Shown here: piece after piece, positions 13,725 through 64,000 of the stretch | Layout: the number at the start of each line of letters is the position of its first letter | Position numbering within the stretch: the stretch's first letter is position 1 | NCBI GenBank assembly: GCA_024405635.1 | Contig: JAKSOL010000013.1 | Location: 1 to 64,000, forward strand | Direction of reading: 5' to 3' | DNA from: Salinivirgaceae bacterium | Lineage (GTDB): Bacteria > Bacteroidota > Bacteroidia > Bacteroidales > SZUA-534 | DNA length: 64,000 nt | Notes under the pieces: model-generated | The model's input: only the letters and a program-made list of their open reading frames with translations | The model's database searches: none | Told to the model about the DNA's origin: nothing | Position numbers and translations under genes: made by a program

Positions 13725-14630
13725 ATGATTTGGGAAGAGACAATTGAAGGTTATAGGAGCTACCTAAAATTGGAAAAATCGCTTTCGGCAAACACTGTTG
13801 AAGCCTATTTGAAAGACATTCGCAAATTGGCAGGATGGCTAATAAGCCGGCCTGGTGTTGCTCCAAAAATGCCAGAACTGGTTACACAAAACGACATTGT
13901 TCAGTTCATAAACACAATAAACGAAAAGGATATGAGCGTGAACTCGCAGGCTCGAATATTATCTGGCATCCGCTCGTTTTTCAAGTACTTGCAATTGCAC
14001 GACATTATTGAAATTGACCCCACCGCACTTATTGAAACGCCAAAAAACGGACGCCATTTACCCGAAGTGCTGTCGCCACAAGAGGTTGAAGACTTAATTA
14101 TGGCTGTTGACTTGAGCAGCGAAACTGGATATCGAAATCGCGCCATTTTAGAAACACTTTATGGTTGTGGCATCCGCGTATCAGAACTTGTTACGCTACG
14201 AATTACCGACATTCATTTTGACGACAATTTTATAAAAGTGAAAGGTAAAGGCAGCAAAGAGCGACTTGTTCCTCTTGGCGGCAAAGCAAAAGATGCCATT
14301 AGAGACTATATGCGTTACTACCGCTCTACTCTGAACATTTATTACAAAGACGAGAATATTTTGTTTTTGAATCGCCGCGGCAAAATGCTCACAAGAGTTA
14401 TGATTTTTACAATTATTAAAGATTTGGCCGAAAAAATAGACCTAAAGAAAACCATAAGTCCACACACTTTTCGCCACTCGTTTGCTACTCATTTACTTGA
14501 GGGCGGAGCCGACTTGCGCGCCATACAAGAGATGCTTGGCCACGAATCGATAACCACAACAGAGATTTACACTCACATAAACAAAGATTTTTTGCGCGAC
14601 ACCATTCTAAGGTTTCATCCTCGTTCGTAA
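13725..14630 (+). CDS. xerD: Site-specific tyrosine recombinase XerD
   Basis: YGCGIRVSEL, KGKGSKER, HTFRHSFATHLL, LGHESITTTEIY. Confidence 0.85.
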   Translation: MIWEETIEGYRSYLKLEKSLSANTVEAYLKDIRKLAGWLISRPGVAPKMPELVTQNDIVQFINTINEKDMSVNSQARILSGIRSFFKYLQLHDIIEIDPTALIETPKNGRHLPEVLSPQEVEDLIMAVDLSSETGYRNRAILETLYGCGIRVSELVTLRITDIHFDDNFIKVKGKGSKERLVPLGGKAKDAIRDYMRYYRSTLNIYYKDENILFLNRRGKMLTRVMIFTIIKDLAEKIDLKKTISPHTFRHSFATHLLEGGADLRAIQEMLGHESITTTEIYTHINKDFLRDTILRFHPRS

Positions 14631-21953: not shown

Positions 21954-22877
21954 ATGAAAAAGATTTTGATAGCAACCCAAAAACCATTTGCTGCAGCAGC
22001 TGTAAAAAGCATGACTAGCATTGCAGAAGGTAAGGGATACGAAGTAAAATTGCTTGAAAAATATGCTGAACAAAGCGAATTTGTAGCTGCAGCTGCTGAT
22101 GCTGACGCAATCATTATTCGTAGCGACATTGCCGACAAAGATGTGTTGGCAAATGCTAAGAACTTGAAAGTGATTGTTCGTGCAGGTGCTGGTTACGACA
22201 ACATCGACCTTGAGGCTTGCACCGCTAATGGTGTTTGCGCAATGAACACTCCAGGCCAAAACTCAAACGCAGTAGCTGAGTTGGTTTTCGGAATGTTGGT
22301 TTATGCTGTTCGCAATTTCTTCAACGGCAAATCAGGTAGCGAGTTGATGGGCAAAAAACTTGGTATCCTAGCATTTGGTAACGTTGGTCGCAATGTGGCT
22401 CGCGTAGCTAAAGGCTTTGGCATGGAGGTTTATGCTTACGATGCATTCTGCCCTAAAGAAGCTATTGAAGCTGCTGGTGTAAAAGCAGTTGAATCTCAAG
22501 ATGCTTTGTTTGAAACCTGCGACATTGTTTCACTTCACATTCCTGCAACAGCAGAAACAAAAAATAGCATCAACTACGCTTTAGTTAACAAAATGAAAAA
22601 AGGCGGTATCGTTGTAAATACAGCTCGCAAAGAGGTTATCAACGAGGCTGAACTTATCAAGTTGATGGAAGAACGTGAAGACTTGAAATACATTACCGAC
22701 ATTATGCCAGACGCAAACGAAGAGTTTGCTGCAAAATTTGCTGGTCGCTATTTCTCAACTCCAAAGAAAATGGGTGCACAAACTGCAGAGGCTAACAACA
22801 ACGCTGGCATTGCAGCTGTAAACCAAATCATCGATTTCTTTGAAAACGGAAACGAAAAGTTTAGAGTAAACAAATAA
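21954..22877 (+). CDS. serA: D-3-phosphoglycerate dehydrogenase (short type)
   Basis: RAGAGYDNID, NTPGQNSNAVAE, FGNVG, VNTAR; follows serC. Confidence 0.8.
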   Translation: MKKILIATQKPFAAAAVKSMTSIAEGKGYEVKLLEKYAEQSEFVAAAADADAIIIRSDIADKDVLANAKNLKVIVRAGAGYDNIDLEACTANGVCAMNTPGQNSNAVAELVFGMLVYAVRNFFNGKSGSELMGKKLGILAFGNVGRNVARVAKGFGMEVYAYDAFCPKEAIEAAGVKAVESQDALFETCDIVSLHIPATAETKNSINYALVNKMKKGGIVVNTARKEVINEAELIKLMEEREDLKYITDIMPDANEEFAAKFAGRYFSTPKKMGAQTAEANNNAGIAAVNQIIDFFENGNEKFRVNK

Positions 22878-22898
22878 TATTTGCTCAAGAAAAGCACT

Positions 22899-22932
22899 AA
22901 AAAATCCCAAGCACATTACTTGGGATTTTTTT
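22899..22932 (+). terminator. Intrinsic terminator after serA
   Basis: AAAAAATCCCAAG...CTTGGGATTTTTTT. Confidence 0.8.
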
Positions 22933-22960
22933 ATTTTCACCGATAATAAAATGTACAATT

Positions 22961-34694: not shown

Positions 34695-37600
34695 TTATTG
34701 CTTAATAATTATTATTTGCTCTGTTTTGGTCCATTTTAGCGTACTAATACGCAGTATGTATATGCCACTTGGTAAGTTTAGTTCAACTTTTGACTCTCGC
34801 TCAAGTAATTCATACTCAGCCTCTTTCAATCCACATGTATTGTAAACCGAAAGATGTGCTGAATTTGAAGATTCTAATTCGATGTTAAAAATTCCGTTGC
34901 TTGGATTGGGCCACAATTTAAAGCTACTAAATTGCTGATTGTCAACACCAAGCAGTTTAATCATTGCTATTTGTATATTTTTACTCTCGTCAAGTTCAAC
35001 TAGCACTGTATCGTTTTTAAAACCGCTGTTGCTTATAACAAATGTGCAAGTTCCGCCTTTTGGCAAAGTAACAATGGCAACACCTGTTTCGTTTGTCAGC
35101 ACTTCGTTCCCATCAAACAAAAGGCTTGCTCCAACCATTGGCACTTGCTCGCTTGTTACATAAAATTTCAATCTAACTTTTTGTTCTTCAATAGAAGTAT
35201 CTTGCTGATGCAAATAAACATTAACAGTTTGATTTTCAGAAATTAATGCAACAGTATCATAAAGCGACATGCCTCCATAATGGACTTCAAAAGGCAAAGC
35301 ATCGGTTGATATTAATCCTGTAAATGTTGTGGCCCCTAACTTGTTTGTCATTTGATTTTGCCCATACACCGTAACAATTGCACTAGATAACAATGCGCTA
35401 TCTTGCGTATGAACATAGAAAACCACATTGCATTGCTTTTTCAATAGTTTTATCTTGATGTTTGAATCATAATCAACTACTACACTGTCAGTTACCATAG
35501 CGCACCCCGATGCTAAAACTGAATATTTCAACTTATCTTGACGAACATTGCAAATAGTAACAACGCCTTGCGAATCGGAGAAATAAGATTGTCCATCAAC
35601 TTGAACTTCAGCATTTTGAATTGCATTATTACCGTCGGTGATATTAAATGTTACACAAAATGGACTTTGCAAAACCACATCTATTTGGCCATTTGATTGC
35701 GACACGCTAACTTTTTGATAATAAGTCTGAAAATCATGATGTTCAATTTTCAAATCATAGTATTCGAACATTGCACCATAAACAGTTGCCTCACCATTGG
35801 CATCAGTTATAGTTTGTTGCAGATTATCAAACAAAACCGATGCTCCAACAACAGCATTAACGCCATCGGTTACACGCAATTTAATGCTTGAACTTTTATC
35901 AAGATTCACAATAAATGCAGTATCGGCAGTTGTAATCACTTTATCGGCATAAGGGACACAACCTGTAGAACGAATTTCGAGTTGGGTTTCGCCATAGTAA
36001 CGACCTGTAAATGTTACAGTTCCGTTTACCGTTTGCAAAGTTTGATTGCCAAATGTCACAGTGGCATTATTAACAAACTGTTCGCCATTGATAACATTTA
36101 TGGTCACGTTCCACATATCGCCAAGTTGCATATTTACAACAAGTTGCGTGGTATCGTCAATTGCAAGAACTTCGCCCTCTTCTATTTTATAATTCTGCGC
36201 CTGTACTTTATACCGATGCAATGCTCCAACTCCATAAATGGGAACCATAACTTGACCAAATGAGTTTGTTTCGCACACAATATCGGCCACCGAAACCAAA
36301 GCACCAGGAATTGTTTTATTGTTAGGATCTTTTACCGTAACGCTCAACCAATTAGGTCGAACCACATTAAAGCGCGTGTTTGGTCTTATTTTTTTTCTAT
36401 CGTAATAATCAGGAGGAGCAAGGCTATCGGAATAGCCATAACTAACTGAATAAAAGCTAGTTGAATGGCATTTAACTACAGTTCGAAATGTATTGTTAAC
36501 ATATAAATCGTTATCGCCCCAAACAATTTCAGCTAACAAATTATCGGTTCCGTTGTATAAAAAACCTCTATCAAAATCAATTATCTCCCACCCAGTTTGC
36601 GACGATAGCATATAACCATCAACATCAACAACTGGCTCACAATCAGACATATCGACAAATTCGCCCAACGAATTCAAACTTGTATGCTTTAGCCTAATAA
36701 CAAAGTTTGCCAAAGGAACTTGCAAATTTTCAGGTGTTGCTTTGTAAATATCAAAAGCCAAATTTCTGATTTGCAATGGTTTGCCACCTAAATCAGCTGC
36801 GGTGTACAAAATTTGAGTTTTGTTGTTTTCGTACACATTATTAAATGGATAATCTGAAGCAACTTTCGTTCCTGCACCAACAGTAACATACTCCTCCTCG
36901 CCAACACTAACAACGTAAGATGCCGAATGGCTAGTAAGATTGCGTTTATCGACAACAGAAGCCGATATCGCAACCATTGCAACTGGCGCAGTTATACGTT
37001 GCGACGAAATTGCAAAAGCAACGTCTACCTCGCTATTCGGTTCAATATTGGGCAAAACAATCTGCTGTTTAAGCAAATTTACAAAGTCAGATTCCCCTTC
37101 AAGTGCTAAATCAACAATTGGCGTTTCGGCTGTAAAATGGCCTTCGTTTATAACTTTTACAACAAGATTTACGGTTTCGCCATAATCCCACAAATGGTTG
37201 CCATTTGCTTTTGAATCATCAACTTTTATTGTCGATAACAACTTGATTTTAGGCACTTTAACCGTAACATTGGTTTCGTATTCAAATGTATATTCGCCCG
37301 AATTGATAGTTATTTTAAAAGGAATGATAGTTAAATCGGGGACACTATTATTTAAAGTAAAATAGCACTTTTGGGTGGTTGTACTCAACTGATTTTCAAG
37401 GTCTTGAATTGGAATATTGGTGTTATTTTCTTTCAGAGTAACAAAATTGCTTGTAGTAGTAATACTAACAGTAGCATTGCTCGATGCCACTTTTCCTAAA
37501 TTGGCTATTTTCAATTCAATAGCAAATTGTTCTCCACTCTCAACAACTCCATTTGAGTTTTGGTCAGAAATGTTAGTTTCATTAATCACCAAGAAAGGCT

Positions 37601-39659
37601 GATTGGGTAAAACTGACGAAATTGTAGTGATAACAGGTTTACGTTGCGCTTTGGTAACAACAATGTCGTAGACGGCAACATCAGTTAACAACGAAGTGTT
37701 AAGTACAGCTACTCCATCAACCGCAACTGCACTATTAATCAGCACATTATCCTTACTAATTGCCACCAACGAACCGCTCTCGGCTTTAACCGACAAAGTT
37801 GGCGAGCCAAGCATAATCACACTGGGCAATTCAACTGTATTTTCAGTAGCCGCAGCATAGTATGGAGCAAGCGATGGGTCGCCAAGACAATTGTATGTTT
37901 CCCAATAATATTGTGTACCTTTTTGCGATGGATAGTTACTATCGTGGGCTTCCGAAACAGCCAAATTTCCAACAAACATTATAGCTCCAGCCGTAACATT
38001 ATCGCTAACAAAAGGAGCATCATAAGCGCCAGTTGTACTATTTTCAACCGTAGGATAATCGCCTAACGAAAGGCTATGCGCACCTACCGCCCAATAAAAA
38101 TCCTCATACCAAAACGACTCGTCGATACTGCCAATGTAGCACACAGCACCTGCATTAGGTTTTCGCAACCAAGCCTCGCCTATGCAAGTTTTTGTTCCTG
38201 ACGAAGGAAAATTGCCTGAATAACAGCAATTTGCAACCACAAAAGGATACTTGCCTATATTCTGAAACTCGTTAACTGTTGCAATTTTCAACTCTGGGTC
38301 TACCCAAGTTGTTGTGCTTCCGTGTCCCGAATAATTATAAAAACCAACCGAAACCGATTCATTAGAATAACAACCTGTGTAGTTTATTGTTAAATAAGAA
38401 TTTACGGTTGTATAACCATGACTTTCATTAAAATAGTTTTCCAACGCATATTTAATTGTTGGCCTAACAATTTTAGAAGTGTAAGAAGCATCGTAACCTG
38501 CAACAAGTGTTGCCGAGTTAAGATACTTATCGTCAACAAATTTATACTGCTCGTAGGTTAAGGTTTTGTCAATAATTGCCTGCAAATCATCGGTAGTTGA
38601 AGCCGAAAAACGGCCAAAGTACATATCGGGCACATAGTCGTCATCGCCATCGATACACGCATAGTACAAGTCGGTTCCCAAACCTGTTTTAATGCCAATT
38701 TGCGAATAAGGCAAATCTTTTGTATCACCAACCAAAAGCAAATAAGTTGGTGCGCTATCAACCGCAGCCAATTGATTGTAACGTTCTTTTATCCAAGATT
38801 TTATATTGTCTGATGTTGTTCCTGTGGTTGCGGTTGAAACCAACTCTACCGAATACCCTTTCCTGCTCTTCCATTGAGCAAACTGGCGCATTTGATTTAC
38901 AAAAGCATCGGGACAAATAATTAGATATTTTATTGGATAATCAGTACAATCGGATTTTGCTGACGACTTCGAAGTTAAGACTTCAGCATTTAGCAGTTGC
39001 TTGTAAACACTCTGAAAATTAACCAATTGCGACTTACTATCGATTGCACCTTCAAAATTCACCTTAATATCAATACCACTATAAACTTTTAGTTCGTTGG
39101 TTGATGGATTATAGTCAATTGGCGATACTGTTATTTGAGCCAAATCGGCACCTCTAAATGTACCAATGCGCTCAATTTCAACAAGTTTTCGATTGGCAAA
39201 GCGTTTATTTTTGTAATGTTTTTTATCGTAATGGAATTTTATATTACGCGCCTTTTCGTTTTTTGAATACGAAGGTTGAAATGGCACTAATTTATGCTCA
39301 TAACCAAGGCTATCAAGCTGATAAATAGTAGTATCGGCAAATGTTGCGCGCACTGTACATTCGGCTCCACGAGGAATCAAAATCAATCGTTTGTATGCTG
39401 GTATTTGCGGTTTTCCAAGCTCTCCAACACGGTATGCTCCATCAAACTGCATTTCAAAAAAAGTGGCTCCATCAAATGTAACTTGGTCCATATTGACCGA
39501 CTCTACATTAACTTTTAGAGCAAAGCCCTTGCTGCTTACATTGCTTATTTTGAACTGATTAGCCGATTTGCCATTGCTGAAATGCAATGTACTTTGCGCC
39601 TGAGCATGAGCAAAAAACGCAAACAACAAAAAAAGTAATGTTTTAAGCCGTTTCATCAA
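34695..39659 (-). CDS. C25 (gingipain, Kgp-like) cysteine peptidase with Ig-like repeats and T9SS CTD
   Basis: Signal peptide, propeptide (GKPQIP), LLVGD, TDLYYA, GRFS, YSGHGS (His), ANCCYS (Cys), LGDP; CTD WPNPSNG...LPSGIYIL. Confidence 0.88.
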   Translation of the reverse strand: MMKRLKTLLFLLFAFFAHAQAQSTLHFSNGKSANQFKISNVSSKGFALKVNVESVNMDQVTFDGATFFEMQFDGAYRVGELGKPQIPAYKRLILIPRGAECTVRATFADTTIYQLDSLGYEHKLVPFQPSYSKNEKARNIKFHYDKKHYKNKRFANRKLVEIERIGTFRGADLAQITVSPIDYNPSTNELKVYSGIDIKVNFEGAIDSKSQLVNFQSVYKQLLNAEVLTSKSSAKSDCTDYPIKYLIICPDAFVNQMRQFAQWKSRKGYSVELVSTATTGTTSDNIKSWIKERYNQLAAVDSAPTYLLLVGDTKDLPYSQIGIKTGLGTDLYYACIDGDDDYVPDMYFGRFSASTTDDLQAIIDKTLTYEQYKFVDDKYLNSATLVAGYDASYTSKIVRPTIKYALENYFNESHGYTTVNSYLTINYTGCYSNESVSVGFYNYSGHGSTTTWVDPELKIATVNEFQNIGKYPFVVANCCYSGNFPSSGTKTCIGEAWLRKPNAGAVCYIGSIDESFWYEDFYWAVGAHSLSLGDYPTVENSTTGAYDAPFVSDNVTAGAIMFVGNLAVSEAHDSNYPSQKGTQYYWETYNCLGDPSLAPYYAAATENTVELPSVIMLGSPTLSVKAESGSLVAISKDNVLINSAVAVDGVAVLNTSLLTDVAVYDIVVTKAQRKPVITTISSVLPNQPFLVINETNISDQNSNGVVESGEQFAIELKIANLGKVASSNATVSITTTSNFVTLKENNTNIPIQDLENQLSTTTQKCYFTLNNSVPDLTIIPFKITINSGEYTFEYETNVTVKVPKIKLLSTIKVDDSKANGNHLWDYGETVNLVVKVINEGHFTAETPIVDLALEGESDFVNLLKQQIVLPNIEPNSEVDVAFAISSQRITAPVAMVAISASVVDKRNLTSHSASYVVSVGEEEYVTVGAGTKVASDYPFNNVYENNKTQILYTAADLGGKPLQIRNLAFDIYKATPENLQVPLANFVIRLKHTSLNSLGEFVDMSDCEPVVDVDGYMLSSQTGWEIIDFDRGFLYNGTDNLLAEIVWGDNDLYVNNTFRTVVKCHSTSFYSVSYGYSDSLAPPDYYDRKKIRPNTRFNVVRPNWLSVTVKDPNNKTIPGALVSVADIVCETNSFGQVMVPIYGVGALHRYKVQAQNYKIEEGEVLAIDDTTQLVVNMQLGDMWNVTINVINGEQFVNNATVTFGNQTLQTVNGTVTFTGRYYGETQLEIRSTGCVPYADKVITTADTAFIVNLDKSSSIKLRVTDGVNAVVGASVLFDNLQQTITDANGEATVYGAMFEYYDLKIEHHDFQTYYQKVSVSQSNGQIDVVLQSPFCVTFNITDGNNAIQNAEVQVDGQSYFSDSQGVVTICNVRQDKLKYSVLASGCAMVTDSVVVDYDSNIKIKLLKKQCNVVFYVHTQDSALLSSAIVTVYGQNQMTNKLGATTFTGLISTDALPFEVHYGGMSLYDTVALISENQTVNVYLHQQDTSIEEQKVRLKFYVTSEQVPMVGASLLFDGNEVLTNETGVAIVTLPKGGTCTFVISNSGFKNDTVLVELDESKNIQIAMIKLLGVDNQQFSSFKLWPNPSNGIFNIELESSNSAHLSVYNTCGLKEAEYELLERESKVELNLPSGIYILRISTLKWTKTEQIIIIKQ

Positions 39660-60199: not shown

Positions 60200-61405
60200 A
60201 TGGAACAGAAAAAGAAAGTAGTAGTTGCATTCAGCGGTGGTCTTGACACATCGTACACTGTAATGTATCTTGCAAAAGAAAAAGGTTATGAGGTTTACGC
60301 AGCTTGCGCCAACACTGGCGGTTTTAGCGCTGAACAACTAAAAACTAACGAAGAGAATGCTTACAAACTTGGCGCTACCAAATATGTTACTCTAGACGTT
60401 ACAAAAGAATACTACGAAAAGAGTTTGAAATATATGGTTTACGGAAACGTATTGCGTAACAACTGCTACCCTATTTCGGTTAGTTCAGAGCGCATTTTCC
60501 AAGCCATTGCCATTGCTCGTTATGCTAAAGAAATTGGCGCTAGTGCCATTGCTCACGGATCAACTGGCGCAGGCAACGACCAAATTCGATTCGACATGAC
60601 TTTCCTTGTTATGGCTCCTGGTGTTGAAATTATCACCCTTACCCGCGACAGCAACCTTAGCCGCCAAGAGGAGGTTGATTACTTGAACAAAAACGGTTTC
60701 TTTGCCGACTTTACAAAACTTAAATACTCGTACAACGTTGGTATTTGGGGAACTTCAATCTGCGGTGGCGAGATTCTTGACTCAAAACAAGGCTTGCCAG
60801 AATCGGCTTACTTAAAACACCCAGTTAAAGAAGGGCCAGAGTTGCTTAAACTTGGTTTCGAAAAAGGTGAACTTTCGTCGGTTAACGGCAAAAAATACGA
60901 CGACAAAATTGCTGCTATTCAAGCTGTTGAAGAAATTGGCGCAGCATACGGCATAGGTCGCGATTGCCACGTTGGCGACACCATTATTGGCATTAAGGGC
61001 CGCGTTGGTTTTGAGGCTGCTGCTCCTATGCTTATCATTGGTGCTCACCGTTTCCTTGAAAAATACACCTTGTCGAAATGGCAACAATATTGGAAAGACC
61101 AAGTTTCAAACTGGTATGGAATGTTCCTTCACGAGAGCCAATATCTTGAGCCTGTTATGCCCGATATTGAAGCTATGCTTGCAAGCAGCCAACGCAACGT
61201 AACTGGCGAAGTTACTCTTGAACTTCGTCCTCTTGGTTTCCAAACCGTGGGCGTTGACTCTCCAAACGACCTTGTAAAGAACAAACTTGGCGAATATGGC
61301 GAGACAGCAAAAGCTTGGACTTCAGACGACGCAAAGGGCTTTATAAAAGTTACCTCAACCGCATTGCGCGCTTACTATTTGGCGCACCCAGACGAAAGAA
61401 AATAG
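60200..61405 (+). CDS. argG: Argininosuccinate synthase
   Basis: AFSGGLDTS, HGSTGAGNDQIRFD, GIKGRVGFEA. Confidence 0.95.
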   Translation: MEQKKKVVVAFSGGLDTSYTVMYLAKEKGYEVYAACANTGGFSAEQLKTNEENAYKLGATKYVTLDVTKEYYEKSLKYMVYGNVLRNNCYPISVSSERIFQAIAIARYAKEIGASAIAHGSTGAGNDQIRFDMTFLVMAPGVEIITLTRDSNLSRQEEVDYLNKNGFFADFTKLKYSYNVGIWGTSICGGEILDSKQGLPESAYLKHPVKEGPELLKLGFEKGELSSVNGKKYDDKIAAIQAVEEIGAAYGIGRDCHVGDTIIGIKGRVGFEAAAPMLIIGAHRFLEKYTLSKWQQYWKDQVSNWYGMFLHESQYLEPVMPDIEAMLASSQRNVTGEVTLELRPLGFQTVGVDSPNDLVKNKLGEYGETAKAWTSDDAKGFIKVTSTALRAYYLAHPDERK

Positions 61406-61440
61406 AAAAAGTTGTAAGTTTTTTTAGACAATACAAAACT

Positions 61441-61626
61441 ATGACACAACCAAAAAGACTTGTCAAATCGCAAAGCCGAGTTATATGCGGCGTTTGCGGC
61501 GGGCTATCCGAATATTTGAACTTAGACCCTGTTATTATGCGCATTCTATGGATTTTATTCGCCATTTTAGGGGGTTCTGGAATTTTAGTTTATCTAATTT
61601 TTGCACTTGTAATGCCTAACAAATAA
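61441..61626 (+). CDS. PspC-domain small membrane protein
   Basis: KRLVKS..RVICGVCGGLSEYL..DP..MR...YLIFALVMP; true start ATG 61441. Confidence 0.85.
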   Translation: MTQPKRLVKSQSRVICGVCGGLSEYLNLDPVIMRILWILFAILGGSGILVYLIFALVMPNK

Positions 61627-62663
61627 TGATACGAGTTGGAATACTTGGCGCTGCAGGATATACTGGTGGAGAACTGCTTCGCATTTTAATTAACCACCCA
61701 CAAGTTGAAATTGTTTTTGCAAACAGCGAGTCAAACGCAGGCAACAGCGTGAGCGATGTTCACGAAGGTTTGATTGGCGAGACAGACCTAAAGTTCTCGG
61801 CCGAAATGACTTTTGACCAAGTAGATGTTGTTTTCTTCTGCTTTGGCCACGGTAAAAGCGAGGCTTTTCTAAAGGAGCACACAATTCCTGATAATGTGAA
61901 GATTATTGACCTTGCTCAAGATTTTCGCATTGCTGCACCAACCCACGACTATGTTTATGGTTTGCCAGAAATACACAAAGAGCAAATTGCTAAATGCCAA
62001 CATTTGGCCAACCCGGGTTGCTTTGCCACCTGCGTTCAACTTGGATTGTTGCCTCTAGCAAAAGCCGGTTTGCTTAAACACGATGTGGCTGTAAATGCCA
62101 TTACAGGATCAACGGGCGCGGGACAAAAACCATCAGCAACAACACACTTCTCGTGGCGCAACAACAACATGAGCATCTACAAAGTGTTTACCCACCAACA
62201 CTTGCACGAGATTTGCCAAACAATGAACGAACTACGCCCTAGCAACGCTCCTGCAGTAATCGACACATTGGTTGCTCAACCTGCAAACGACGACATCACC
62301 ATCGACTTTATTCCTTATCGTGGCGATTTTGCCCGCGGCATCTTCTGCACCGAGGTTGTAAAATTCGATGGCGAAGAAGGCAGCGCAACCAACCCAACTG
62401 CCGAGCAATTGGCCAACATGTACAAGTCGTTTTATGCCGATGCCGCATTCACTTTCTACAGCGACAAAGAAATTGACCTTAAGCAAGTGGTAAACACCAA
62501 CAAAGCCCTTGTACACATTGACAAATTCGGCAACAAAGCCGTCATTACTTCAATGATTGACAACTTGCTAAAAGGCGCAGTTGGACAAGCAGTACAAAAC
62601 ATGAACATCATGTTTGGCATTGACGAAAAAACTGGATTGGGACTAAAAGCAACAGCGTTTTAA
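61626..62663 (+). CDS. argC: N-acetyl-gamma-glutamyl-phosphate reductase
   Basis: GAAGYTGGELLR, YGLPE, ANPGCFAT, TGSTGAG, DNLLKGAVGQAVQNMN. Confidence 0.95.
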   Translation: MIRVGILGAAGYTGGELLRILINHPQVEIVFANSESNAGNSVSDVHEGLIGETDLKFSAEMTFDQVDVVFFCFGHGKSEAFLKEHTIPDNVKIIDLAQDFRIAAPTHDYVYGLPEIHKEQIAKCQHLANPGCFATCVQLGLLPLAKAGLLKHDVAVNAITGSTGAGQKPSATTHFSWRNNNMSIYKVFTHQHLHEICQTMNELRPSNAPAVIDTLVAQPANDDITIDFIPYRGDFARGIFCTEVVKFDGEEGSATNPTAEQLANMYKSFYADAAFTFYSDKEIDLKQVVNTNKALVHIDKFGNKAVITSMIDNLLKGAVGQAVQNMNIMFGIDEKTGLGLKATAF

Positions 62664-62691
62664 TAATGTTTAATGTTTAATGATTAATAAC
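62664..62691 (+). repeat. Left heptamer array TAATGTT-TAATGTT-TAATGAT-TAATAAC
   Basis: Read directly; starts immediately after the argC stop. Confidence 0.85.
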
Positions 62692-62693
62692 GC

Positions 62694-63059
62694 ATGGGGG
62701 CTAATGTGCTGAAGGAAAAAAGTTTTTCGTTCGCTATAAGAATCACTAAACTGAATCGGTTTCTTATAGAAGAGAAAAACGAATATGTTCTTTCAAAACA
62801 GATTCTACGGTCTGGCACATCAATCGGCGCTATGGTGCGTGAAGCCGAATTCAGCGAAAGTAAAAGCGACTTTGTTCACAAAATGGCTATTGCCCAAAAA
62901 GAAACAAACGAAACTATTTATTGGATTGATCTTTTGGCATCTGTCAATTACATTGACGAAAACTTAAAAGAAAGTTTACAAACCGATGCCACTGAACTTA
63001 TGAAAATAATAACCGCTAGCATAAAAACGGCCAAAAACTCATTAAACATTAAACACTAA
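62694..63059 (+). CDS. Four-helix-bundle protein (TIGR02436/23S-IVS-protein-like)
   Basis: KSFSFA, LSKQILRSGTSIGAMVREA, SKSDFVHK..IAQKE..ET.YW. Confidence 0.9.
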   Translation: MGANVLKEKSFSFAIRITKLNRFLIEEKNEYVLSKQILRSGTSIGAMVREAEFSESKSDFVHKMAIAQKETNETIYWIDLLASVNYIDENLKESLQTDATELMKIITASIKTAKNSLNIKH

Positions 63060-63081
63060 TCTTTAATCATTTATCATTATC
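63039..63081 (+). repeat. Right heptamer array (CATTAAA x2, CACTAAT, CTTTAAT, CATTTAT, CATTATC), inverted relative to the left array
   Basis: 63039-63058 matches the reverse complement of 62664-62683 at 19 of 20 nt. Confidence 0.85.
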
Positions 63082-63082
63082 T

Positions 63083-64000
63083 ATGGATTTATTCAACGTT
63101 TACTCACTGTTTCCTGTTGAGATTGTAAAAGGCAAAGGTTGCCATGTATGGGACAATAACGGAACAGAATATCTTGACCTTTATGGTGGTCATGCCGTAA
63201 TTTCGGTTGGCCATGCACATCCTAAATATGTAAAGGCTATAAGCGAGCAAGTTGCAACTTTGGGCTTCTACTCAAACTCTGTAATCAACAACTTGCAAAA
63301 GAAATTTGCCGAAAGACTTGGCAAGATATGTGGATACGACGACTATTCGCTTTTCCTTATCAACTCGGGCGCCGAGGCCAACGAAAACGCACTTAAACTT
63401 GCATCGTTCCACAACAATCGCAACAAAGTATTGGCTTTCAAGCACTCGTTTCATGGACGCACCTCGGCAGCCGTAAAGGTTACCGACATTCCAAAATACA
63501 TTGCACCAGTAAACGAAGGTCTTGAGGTTACTTTTGTTGAACTAAACGATGTTGAAAGCGTTCGCACCGAATTGCAAAAAGGCATCTACTCTTCTGTTAT
63601 AATAGAAGGTATTCAAGGCGTTGGTGGCATCCAATTGCCAACCGACCAATTCTTGCGCGACCTTCGCGAAGAGTGCACAAAAACCGGAACAGTACTCATT
63701 CTCGACGAAATTCAATCAGGATACGGCCGAAGCGGAAAATTCTTCGCTCACCAATATAGCGGCATCAAAGCCGATATTATAACCGTAGCTAAAGGCATCT
63801 GCAATGGTTTGCCAATGGCTGGAATGATTATCAGCCCAATGTTTGCTCCTGTTGTTGGTCAACTTGGAACTACATTTGGTGGCAACCACCTTGCTTGCGC
63901 TGGTGCCATTGCTGTTCTCGACATTATTGAAGAGGACAAATTGGTTGAAAATGCCGCAAAGGTTGGCGAGTATCTTATTTCGGAACTGAAAAAGATTGAC
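63083..64000 (+). CDS. argD: Acetylornithine aminotransferase (truncated by window end)
   Basis: Manual translation MDLFNVYSLFP..., YLDLYGGHAV, NSGAEANENA, FHGRT, DEIQSGYGRSG, AKG, TTFGGNHLAC; not in the ORF track. Confidence 0.92.
   Translation, partial: MDLFNVYSLFPVEIVKGKGCHVWDNNGTEYLDLYGGHAVISVGHAHPKYVKAISEQVATLGFYSNSVINNLQKKFAERLGKICGYDDYSLFLINSGAEANENALKLASFHNNRNKVLAFKHSFHGRTSAAVKVTDIPKYIAPVNEGLEVTFVELNDVESVRTELQKGIYSSVIIEGIQGVGGIQLPTDQFLRDLREECTKTGTVLILDEIQSGYGRSGKFFAHQYSGIKADIITVAKGICNGLPMAGMIISPMFAPVVGQLGTTFGGNHLACAGAIAVLDIIEEDKLVENAAKVGEYLISELKKID

Follow-up and report, generated by a model that had tools for sequence, protein, structure and literature searches.

The 64,000-nt stretch of DNA analyzed here (positions 1 to 64,000 of contig JAKSOL010000013.1, assembly GCA_024405635.1, from a Salinivirgaceae bacterium; hereafter the window) carries, between argC and an argD-like gene, a small gene for a four-helix-bundle (4HB) protein that is framed by two tandem heptamer arrays of inverted sense. 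We consider it probable, with appreciable room for doubt, that this unit (nucleotides 62664–63079) represents a selfish cassette that is widespread, lacks a promoter of its own and spreads horizontally. Such a cassette would be the mRNA-borne counterpart of the open reading frame (ORF)-bearing intervening sequences (IVSs) of 23S rRNA and an ORF-bearing relative of gene-less hairpins of the short tandemly repeated repetitive (STRR) type.

The cassette occupies the entire gap between the two host genes. The upstream gene, argC (N-acetyl-gamma-glutamyl-phosphate reductase; 61626–62663, + strand; TIGR01850, E = 3.2e-82, 276.5 bits against a cutoff of 233.6), ends with a TAA at 62661–62663, and the left array begins at the very next base (gap of 0 nt). 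This array (62664–62688, +) consists of about 3.5 copies of TAATGTT/TAATGAT with a period of 7, as judged by Tandem Repeats Finder (TRF), and forms the 5′ arm of a potential stem. The 4HB ORF of 121 aa follows (62694–63059, +), and the right array (63039–63079, +; TRF period 7), with the units TCATTAA/ACATTAA/TCATTTA, provides the 3′ arm; its units are the reverse complement of those on the left. The right array stops 3 nt short of the ATG of the downstream gene, an argD-like class-III aminotransferase that runs past the window end (63083–64000, +; PF00202, E = 1.2e-82; TIGR00707, E = 6.3e-91, with a score under the cutoff because the window end truncates the ORF). The whole cassette of array, ORF and inverted array measures 416 nt on the + strand. 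A first-pass annotation, made from the sequence alone, had described a cassette that reaches from the stop of argC to the ATG of argD, and the boundaries determined here bear it out.

The finer anatomy proposed in that annotation also held. Starting 21 nt within the 4HB ORF, the right array spans the final six codons and the stop of that frame; it therefore encodes the terminal residues SLNIKH, as claimed. In the left array, TAATG stop/start overlaps were located at 62664, 62671 and 62678 and, being 7 nt apart, are present in all three frames. The two arms, described as reverse complementary at 19 of 20 nt, were recovered by a repeat search as 62664–62683 and 63039–63058 (20 nt, 95% complementary). 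A stem of about 20 bp that loops out the ORF in several registers had likewise been predicted. Four further registers were found, among them 25 nt at 84%, 17 nt at 88% (62671–62687 with 63063–63079) and 12 nt at 100%. The minimum-free-energy RNA fold of 62640–63100 pairs both arrays (z = −3.3), and 0 of 100 shuffles folded equally well. The sequence TAATGTTTAATG has a single site in the 64-kb window (0 mismatches), in which no second 4HB gene was present. An Rfam scan of 62300–63400 (E ≤ 1) returned no rRNA or other family, the lone match being a chance-level xanthine riboswitch (17.9 bits against a gathering threshold of 36). A scan for sigma-70 promoters and intrinsic terminators gave three promoters (2.2 expected) and one terminator (0.7 expected), using a model that does not cover Bacteroidota promoters.

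The encoded protein exceeded the cutoffs of both relevant family models, PF05635 (E = 2.7e-24; 85.9 bits against 33.8) and TIGR02436 (E = 3.5e-27; 94.8 bits against 24), confirming its assignment to the family of proteins encoded in 23S rRNA IVSs. It matched by sequence the solved Bacteroides-type structure PDB 2rld_A, which contains five chains (E = 3.7e-34, residues 3–116), and a pentamer is reported for a Xanthomonas homologue in the available text of ref. PMC4990558. The suggested relation to Avd of diversity-generating retroelements (DGRs) agrees with the literature, since PF05635 is said to resemble Avd in the accessible portion of ref. PMC10053308. From these sequence matches, the 4HB protein is probably Avd-like and pentameric. 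Homologues of the window protein numbered 6396 at E ≤ 1e-3, and 32 residues were invariant among 26 aligned sequences; one homologue, at 83% identity, reveals a sister lineage. The family motif GxxRxxxSxxxNxxE (PMC3936711) is matched at three of five positions (R39, S43 and E50), with Q36 in place of the Gly and M47 in place of the Asn; M47 is itself invariant in the subfamily of the window protein. The C termini of homologues are Asn/His/Thr/Ile-rich tails (SLTTNH, SINH and NINN), as expected if repeats encode them.

Relatives of the cassette were surveyed in 79 reference-genome loci (the best 80 of 591 tblastn-confirmed matches, 55–66% identity; numbered with the prefix L below) together with the window. 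Inverted flanks were scored without gaps, by comparison of the 90 nt upstream of each ORF with its stop region, and a score of at least 12 was taken as the threshold; 340 other ORFs of at least 100 aa in the related loci and the window served as controls. The window 4HB gene scored 17, whereas 50 shuffles averaged 7.5 and never exceeded 10. The threshold was reached by 62 of the 80 4HB genes (median 16) and by 5 of the 340 controls (median 7; Mann–Whitney p = 1.8e-32). The homologues do, then, carry inverted heptamer flanks, contrary to the outcome that the first-pass annotation had named as its refutation. The five control ORFs over the threshold comprised one further PF05635 gene, two PDDEXK_3 genes, one DUF4290 gene and one AAA ATPase gene.

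Period-7 arrays were called by TRF on both sides of 72 of the 80 4HB genes, and their placement was tight. Relative to the stop of the upstream gene, the left array started at a median of −4 nt (≤5 nt in 50 of 65), and a median of 3.5 nt separated its end from the 4HB ATG. The right array began within the ORF in 51 of 72 loci, and its end preceded the next start by a median of 5 nt (≤30 nt in 41 of 58). Arrays had a median length of 38 nt, which varied between orthologous insertions, and whole cassettes (72 loci) a median length of 455 nt (interquartile range 429–513). Of the 80 4HB genes, 67 had stops in all three frames within the preceding 42 nt, compared to 98 of 362 controls, and the median number of upstream stop/start overlaps was 3 compared to 0. 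Five loci (L004, L017, L051, L054 and L061) had a C-rich array upstream and a G-rich array downstream, or same-sense arrays on both sides; these reversed or same-sense flanks may come from adjacent gene-less hairpins that share arms. At L053 (4466–4820), the 4HB gene is broken by an in-frame TAA after 62 codons, with homologous reading resumed beyond it, and is likely a pseudogene.

The pattern extends to more distant members. Inverted heptamer arrays were present in both of the two examined (39–44% identity; Planktothrix and Nostoc plasmids), and the units were unrelated to those of the window: GATTTAC/CGTAAAT with CCCCAAT in one and GTCGGAG/CCGACCT in the other. In the Planktothrix plasmids (L080, 2221–3011), the 4HB gene separates drmD (DISARM) from pglX (BREX) and has a complete inverted-heptamer hairpin on each side (GATTTAC... 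and ...CCCCAAT, CGTAAAT), an arrangement more complex than that of the window. Beyond metagenome bins, the family is borne out by isolate genomes and complete plasmids from Bacteroidota, Cyanobacteriota, Treponema, Monoglobus and Chlorohelix.

The two arms belong to the cassette and not to the genome in which it resides. Heptamer units differed widely among loci (TTAATGG, TTAGTGG, ATTGAyA, GAACAnT, CAGTTGA, TTAAGAA and others) and nonetheless covaried within a locus: the match between a cassette's own left and right arms had a median of 16 (n = 80), compared to 9 between arms of different loci (n = 640; p = 9e-15). This is seen even within one operon. At L049 (4168–7676), three 4HB cassettes interrupt a single type I restriction-modification operon (hsdM > 4HB > rhuM > 4HB > ... 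> 4HB), and the two with called arm pairs use distinct self-matched units, TTAGTGG/CTAACAA and AAATTGA/AATTTTC. Heptamer class also followed the protein to a degree. On a tree of 79 proteins (120 columns, poorly resolved, L053 left out), class could be explained by 22 changes, whereas shuffled classes needed 31.7 on average and 0 of 200 shuffles went as low, and one clade with an SH-aLRT of 96 contained all 11 TTGAyA-type cassettes, drawn from Cyanobacteriota, Acidobacteriota, Pseudomonadota and Bacteroidota.

The host sites are mutually unrelated. The argC–argD junction held the cassette in 0 of the 79 related loci, which instead had it in dozens of unrelated operon junctions; the gene is thus not bound to that site. 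A search of the 79 loci for ArgC, ArgG and ArgD found an ArgD homologue in L015 only. Immediately upstream of that argD homologue (L015, 1–61; an uncultured Bacteroides), AATCCGnGn occurs three times with a period of 9. Pfam scans took in 74 upstream and 78 downstream neighbors (152 ORFs) of the 79 loci. Host junctions identified in this way included rpoB > rpoC1 (L060), ATP synthase c > b (atpE > atpF; L041), kdpA > kdpC (L018), trpE > trpG (L055), prephenate dehydrogenase > DAHP synthase (L071), ribulokinase-like > aldolase (L014), oppC > oppD (L069), AcrB > OEP (L079) and response regulator > histidine kinase (L016 and L048). No transposase, HUH transposase, integrase or recombinase was found among the immediate neighbors in the 79 loci, and the cassette itself contains no transposase. 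Published gene tables show further family members in operons without comment on their flanks (PMC3936711 and PMC13688083), for example between wbpP and ugd of a capsule locus (PMC13688083).

One junction of the window offers a comparison of filled and unfilled states. Between its 2-hydroxyacid dehydrogenase and DUF1015 genes (22875–22960), an 83-nt spacer contains a simple GC-containing hairpin followed by a T-run and no cassette. The homologous junction carries a cassette in two Parabacteroides genomes (L034 and L063), each with its own arm type and with flanking genes 63–67% identical to those of the window. Cassettes may replace or enter pre-existing intergenic hairpins.

Inverted heptamer arrays also occur without a gene. 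Pairs of such arrays 12–62 nt apart were found in at least 16 of the 79 loci, often adjoining a cassette, and look like the STRR hairpins of cyanobacteria. Candidates for other cargo between array pairs (L026, L029 and L049) were considered and set aside, as they appear to be ordinary operon ORFs located between neighboring cassettes or hairpins; the L029 ORF, the one of the three that was scanned, matched no Pfam family. Two genes of the PDDEXK_3 family (PF13366; 132–136 aa), at L067 2208–2615 (−) and L078 5127–5522 (+), have inverted repeats on their flanks (for example, CATAGAAACATAG and CTATGTTTCTATG) with no clear 7-nt periodicity. They may represent a second small-gene family that travels in a similar way.

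The orientation and base composition of the arrays suggest how a cassette could persist inside an operon. The 4HB gene was co-oriented with its upstream neighbor in 71 of 74 loci, with its downstream neighbor in 64 of 78 and with both in 59 of 73. Given this co-orientation and the very small gaps to both neighbors, the cassette would be transcribed from the promoter of the host operon. In 51 of 58 informative loci (p = 2e-9), it was the 5′ arm that was rich in G and poor in C. Since neither stop nor start codons contain C, stops in three frames and stop/start overlaps are abundant in such a 5′ array; the G-poor 3′ arm can yield TAA and no start codon. We infer from this handedness, the stop/start content and the sense co-orientation that the arrays are constrained at the level of translation. 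In the proposed scheme, the C-poor 5′ array would end any upstream reading frame and offer start codons, and the G-poor 3′ array would, at any repeat number, give the cassette a stop of its own without introducing start codons. With stops in every frame and a built-in ORF stop, both insertion and repeat slippage would be non-polar. In the transcript, the arrays would pair in several registers as a stem of about 20 bp, with the ORF looped out and the argC stop brought beside the argD start; such a stem might allow translational coupling, or cleavage by RNase III as in rRNA IVSs. The Avd-like, probably pentameric protein could, more speculatively, act on the nucleic acid of its own element.

Several observations weigh against this account. 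The surveyed loci are top matches and thus non-random, many derive from metagenome bins and are possibly mis-binned, and neighboring ORFs were defined by a simple longest-ORF rule. Eighteen of the 80 4HB genes fell below the inverted-repeat threshold, and in some loci (for example, L004, L017 and L051) the arms are swapped or direct. Movement was not observed; neither a strictly orthologous empty site nor a target duplication or excised form was identified, and a 3-kb Planktothrix region (drmD > 4HB > pglX) was filled in three of three plasmids. Duplex stability favored the sense strand in 39 loci and the antisense strand in 41 (Wilcoxon p = 0.78), and arm mismatches were of the G·U type in 36 cases and of the A·C type in 47; with complementarity that is strand-symmetric, an RNA role is not favored over a DNA role, and pairing could matter in DNA too. 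The protein is strongly conserved, at 55–83% identity across phyla, type I or other restriction-modification genes neighbor the gene in 30 of the 79 loci by our own tally, and 18 family genes are reported inside cas loci, for example between cmr3 and cmr2 (PMC3936711). Taken together, the conservation, the restriction-modification neighbors and the cas-locus copies make a host-useful, defense-linked function possible. The first-pass annotation had proposed a transposase-free mobile or RNA-processing unit that inserts between operon genes without polarity. That proposal is supported in part, by the inverted flanks of homologues, the unrelated junctions, the fit of the arrays to neighboring stops and starts, the three-frame stops, the junction that is filled in Parabacteroides and empty in the window, and the likeness to rRNA IVSs; a pairing signal specific to sense RNA was looked for and not found.

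The best-surviving alternative, which we nevertheless hold to be unlikely, is that pairing matters in DNA, where hairpins or cruciforms would act as sites of recombination, slippage or mobilization in the manner of REPIN-RAYT or attC, and that the RNA stem is a by-product. The strand symmetry described above (39 versus 41 loci; 36 G·U versus 47 A·C mismatches) is what this alternative would lead one to see. The gene-less hairpins, seen in no fewer than 16 of the 79 loci and commonly next to a cassette, resemble non-autonomous copies, and the variable array lengths of orthologous insertions are as slippage would predict. However, the cassettes have no recombinase, HUH transposase or integrase as an immediate neighbor. 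Constraints on the transcript or its translation are indicated by the orientation shared with the upstream gene (71 of 74) and by the way the arrays fit the neighboring stop and start codons, and a plain cruciform does not predict the G-rich-5′ handedness (51 of 58).

A second, rather improbable alternative takes the 4HB gene to be a host-beneficial accessory gene, such as a regulator or a defense-linked nucleic-acid-binding protein, that is in the arg operon by happenstance and is flanked by ordinary STRR-like hairpins that stabilize the mRNA or couple translation. In its favor are the restriction-modification neighbors (30 of 79 loci), the plasmid copy between drmD and pglX, the 18 genes in cas loci (PMC3936711) and the 32 invariant residues among 26 sequences, and ORF-free STRR hairpins are indeed known between operon genes, according to the available text of ref. 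PMC2670836. The other hosts, however, are housekeeping operons with no relation to one another (rpoB–rpoC1, ATP synthase, trp, kdp, opp and arg), the arms covary with the cassette and not with the genome, nearly the same protein (55–66% identity) recurs across phyla, and one operon holds three copies (L049).

That the gene is the Avd component or a remnant of a DGR, an idea prompted by the resemblance of PF05635 to Avd (PMC10053308, in the accessible portion), is effectively refuted for this locus: a reverse-transcriptase domain was found in 0 of the 43 other window ORFs of at least 90 aa (with about 0.9 kb visible downstream) and in 0 of the 152 neighbor ORFs of the 79 loci, and the neighbors of the window gene are argC and argD. 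Complementarity that arose by chance in AT-rich, low-complexity intergenic DNA, for which the 29–33% G+C of the region might have spoken, is refuted by the controls (a score of 17 against shuffles reaching at most 10 with a mean of 7.5, and a threshold reached by 62 of 80 4HB genes but by 5 of 340 controls) and by the same pattern in G+C-rich units such as GTCGGAG/CCGACCT.

If the selfish-cassette reading is true, thousands of genes annotated in operons as 'four helix bundle protein' would be copies of one kind of self-framed element. Those located in operons for cas genes, restriction-modification, capsule, RNA polymerase or ATP synthase would have no functional tie to their neighbors, and guilt-by-association arguments in defense islands would need rereading. 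The parts were already known, namely the protein family, the rRNA IVSs, STRR and other heptamer arrays and the presence of family genes in cas loci. A description of PF05635 genes as heptamer-array-framed operon cassettes was not found in the literature searched, which did not extend to subscription journals. The function of the ORF in rRNA IVSs has been open since the early 1990s, as has the origin of STRR and other heptamer arrays. In a bolder proposal, PF05635 proteins would be the dedicated maintenance or mobility factor of a hitherto unrecognized class of transposase-free elements built from inverted heptamer arrays. The pentameric toroid would read about five heptamers, in keeping with the median array length of 38 nt, and would spread the hairpins to hairpin loops in transcribed RNAs, whether mRNA, rRNA or other. 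Such a factor would unite rRNA IVSs, STRR sequences and start-codon heptamer arrays in a system that is RAYT-REPIN-like but non-catalytic; we offer this as a conjecture with little chance of being correct. On the selfish-cassette reading, the cassette also offers a simple and testable system, comprising a 400-nt unit that could sit in an operon without polarity, covarying arms and a small protein with solved homologues.

Other features of the window lie apart from the cassette. The arg operon contains a second small extra gene, a PspC-domain ORF at 61315–61626 (+; PF04024, E = 1.2e-21, residues 47–102) between argG (60200–61405) and argC. This gene meets argC in a TAATG-type junction, where its stop and the ATG at 61626 overlap, and it has no heptamer arrays. 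Elsewhere, and unrelated to the cassette, the window encodes a 1653-aa Peptidase_C25 (gingipain-family) protein (34698–39656, −) and a XerC/D-type tyrosine recombinase (13725–14627, +). Together with the anaerobic NrdD/NrdG, these genes suggest an anaerobic Bacteroidales host, and the closest homologues of the 4HB protein point to the same order.

Compared to known mobile elements, the cassette shares inverted termini with transposons, insertion sequences and miniature inverted-repeat transposable elements but has no transposase, either within it or in its immediate neighbors. RAYT is a transposase of the HUH/Y1 type, and in REPIN-RAYT systems a gene of single-copy type is flanked by inverted repeats that recur as gene-less hairpins at other genomic sites. 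The cassette resembles this combination of a gene, inverted flanks and gene-less hairpin copies. It differs in that the 4HB protein lacks a recognized catalytic domain and in that its repeats are tandem heptamers instead of REP palindromes. Proteins of the Avd type have both nucleic acid and a reverse transcriptase as binding partners. The Avd of DGRs belongs to a four-helix-bundle fold family homologous to the 4HB protein, as far as the available text of ref. PMC10053308 goes, whereas no reverse transcriptase was found with the 4HB gene in the window or the 79 loci, a pair of template and variable repeats is likewise absent, and the gene stands alone in metabolic operons.

The arrays themselves have counterparts among repeats. 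STRR sequences with 7-bp units form hairpins between hupS and hupL, and roles in transcript stability or translational coupling have been proposed for them in the available text of ref. PMC2670836. MacGregor described TAACTGA heptamer arrays that end a few nucleotides before start codons in Beggiatoaceae, cyanobacteria and Bacteroidetes; a term search of the accessible text of that paper gave no mention of the 4HB/IVS gene family (PMC4679880). Like the cassette arrays, STRR and other heptamer arrays consist of tandem 7-bp units, are intergenic within operons and are capable of forming hairpins. In those reports the repeats enclose no gene, whereas the cassette arrays frame an ORF, of 121 aa in the window, and have arms that covary. 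The hosts also differ, filamentous cyanobacteria for STRR sequences and a member of the Bacteroidales for the window.

The closest likeness is to the 23S rRNA IVSs of Leptospira, Coxiella and Brucella, which likewise carry a gene for a PF05635 protein in the loop. In the available text of ref. PMC4990558, these IVSs are 428–444 nt long and have a 28-bp terminal stem that is cut by RNase III and an S23p ORF; the 416-nt cassette is of the same size class. The family is also found in 16S and 23S insertions of candidate phyla radiation bacteria, as stated in the accessible part of a preprint (bioRxiv 10.1101/2024.02.27.582315). An IVS, however, sits in an rRNA helix, whereas the window cassette lies in an mRNA between two protein-coding genes. 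The arms of the cassette are tandem heptamers fitted to the neighboring stop and start. Excision by RNase III is established for rRNA IVSs and would be a prediction for the cassette. Both have terminal inverted repeats and a stem of 20–28 bp that encloses the ORF, and both lack a transposase and are distributed sporadically in a manner that suggests horizontal transfer (PMC4990558, available text).

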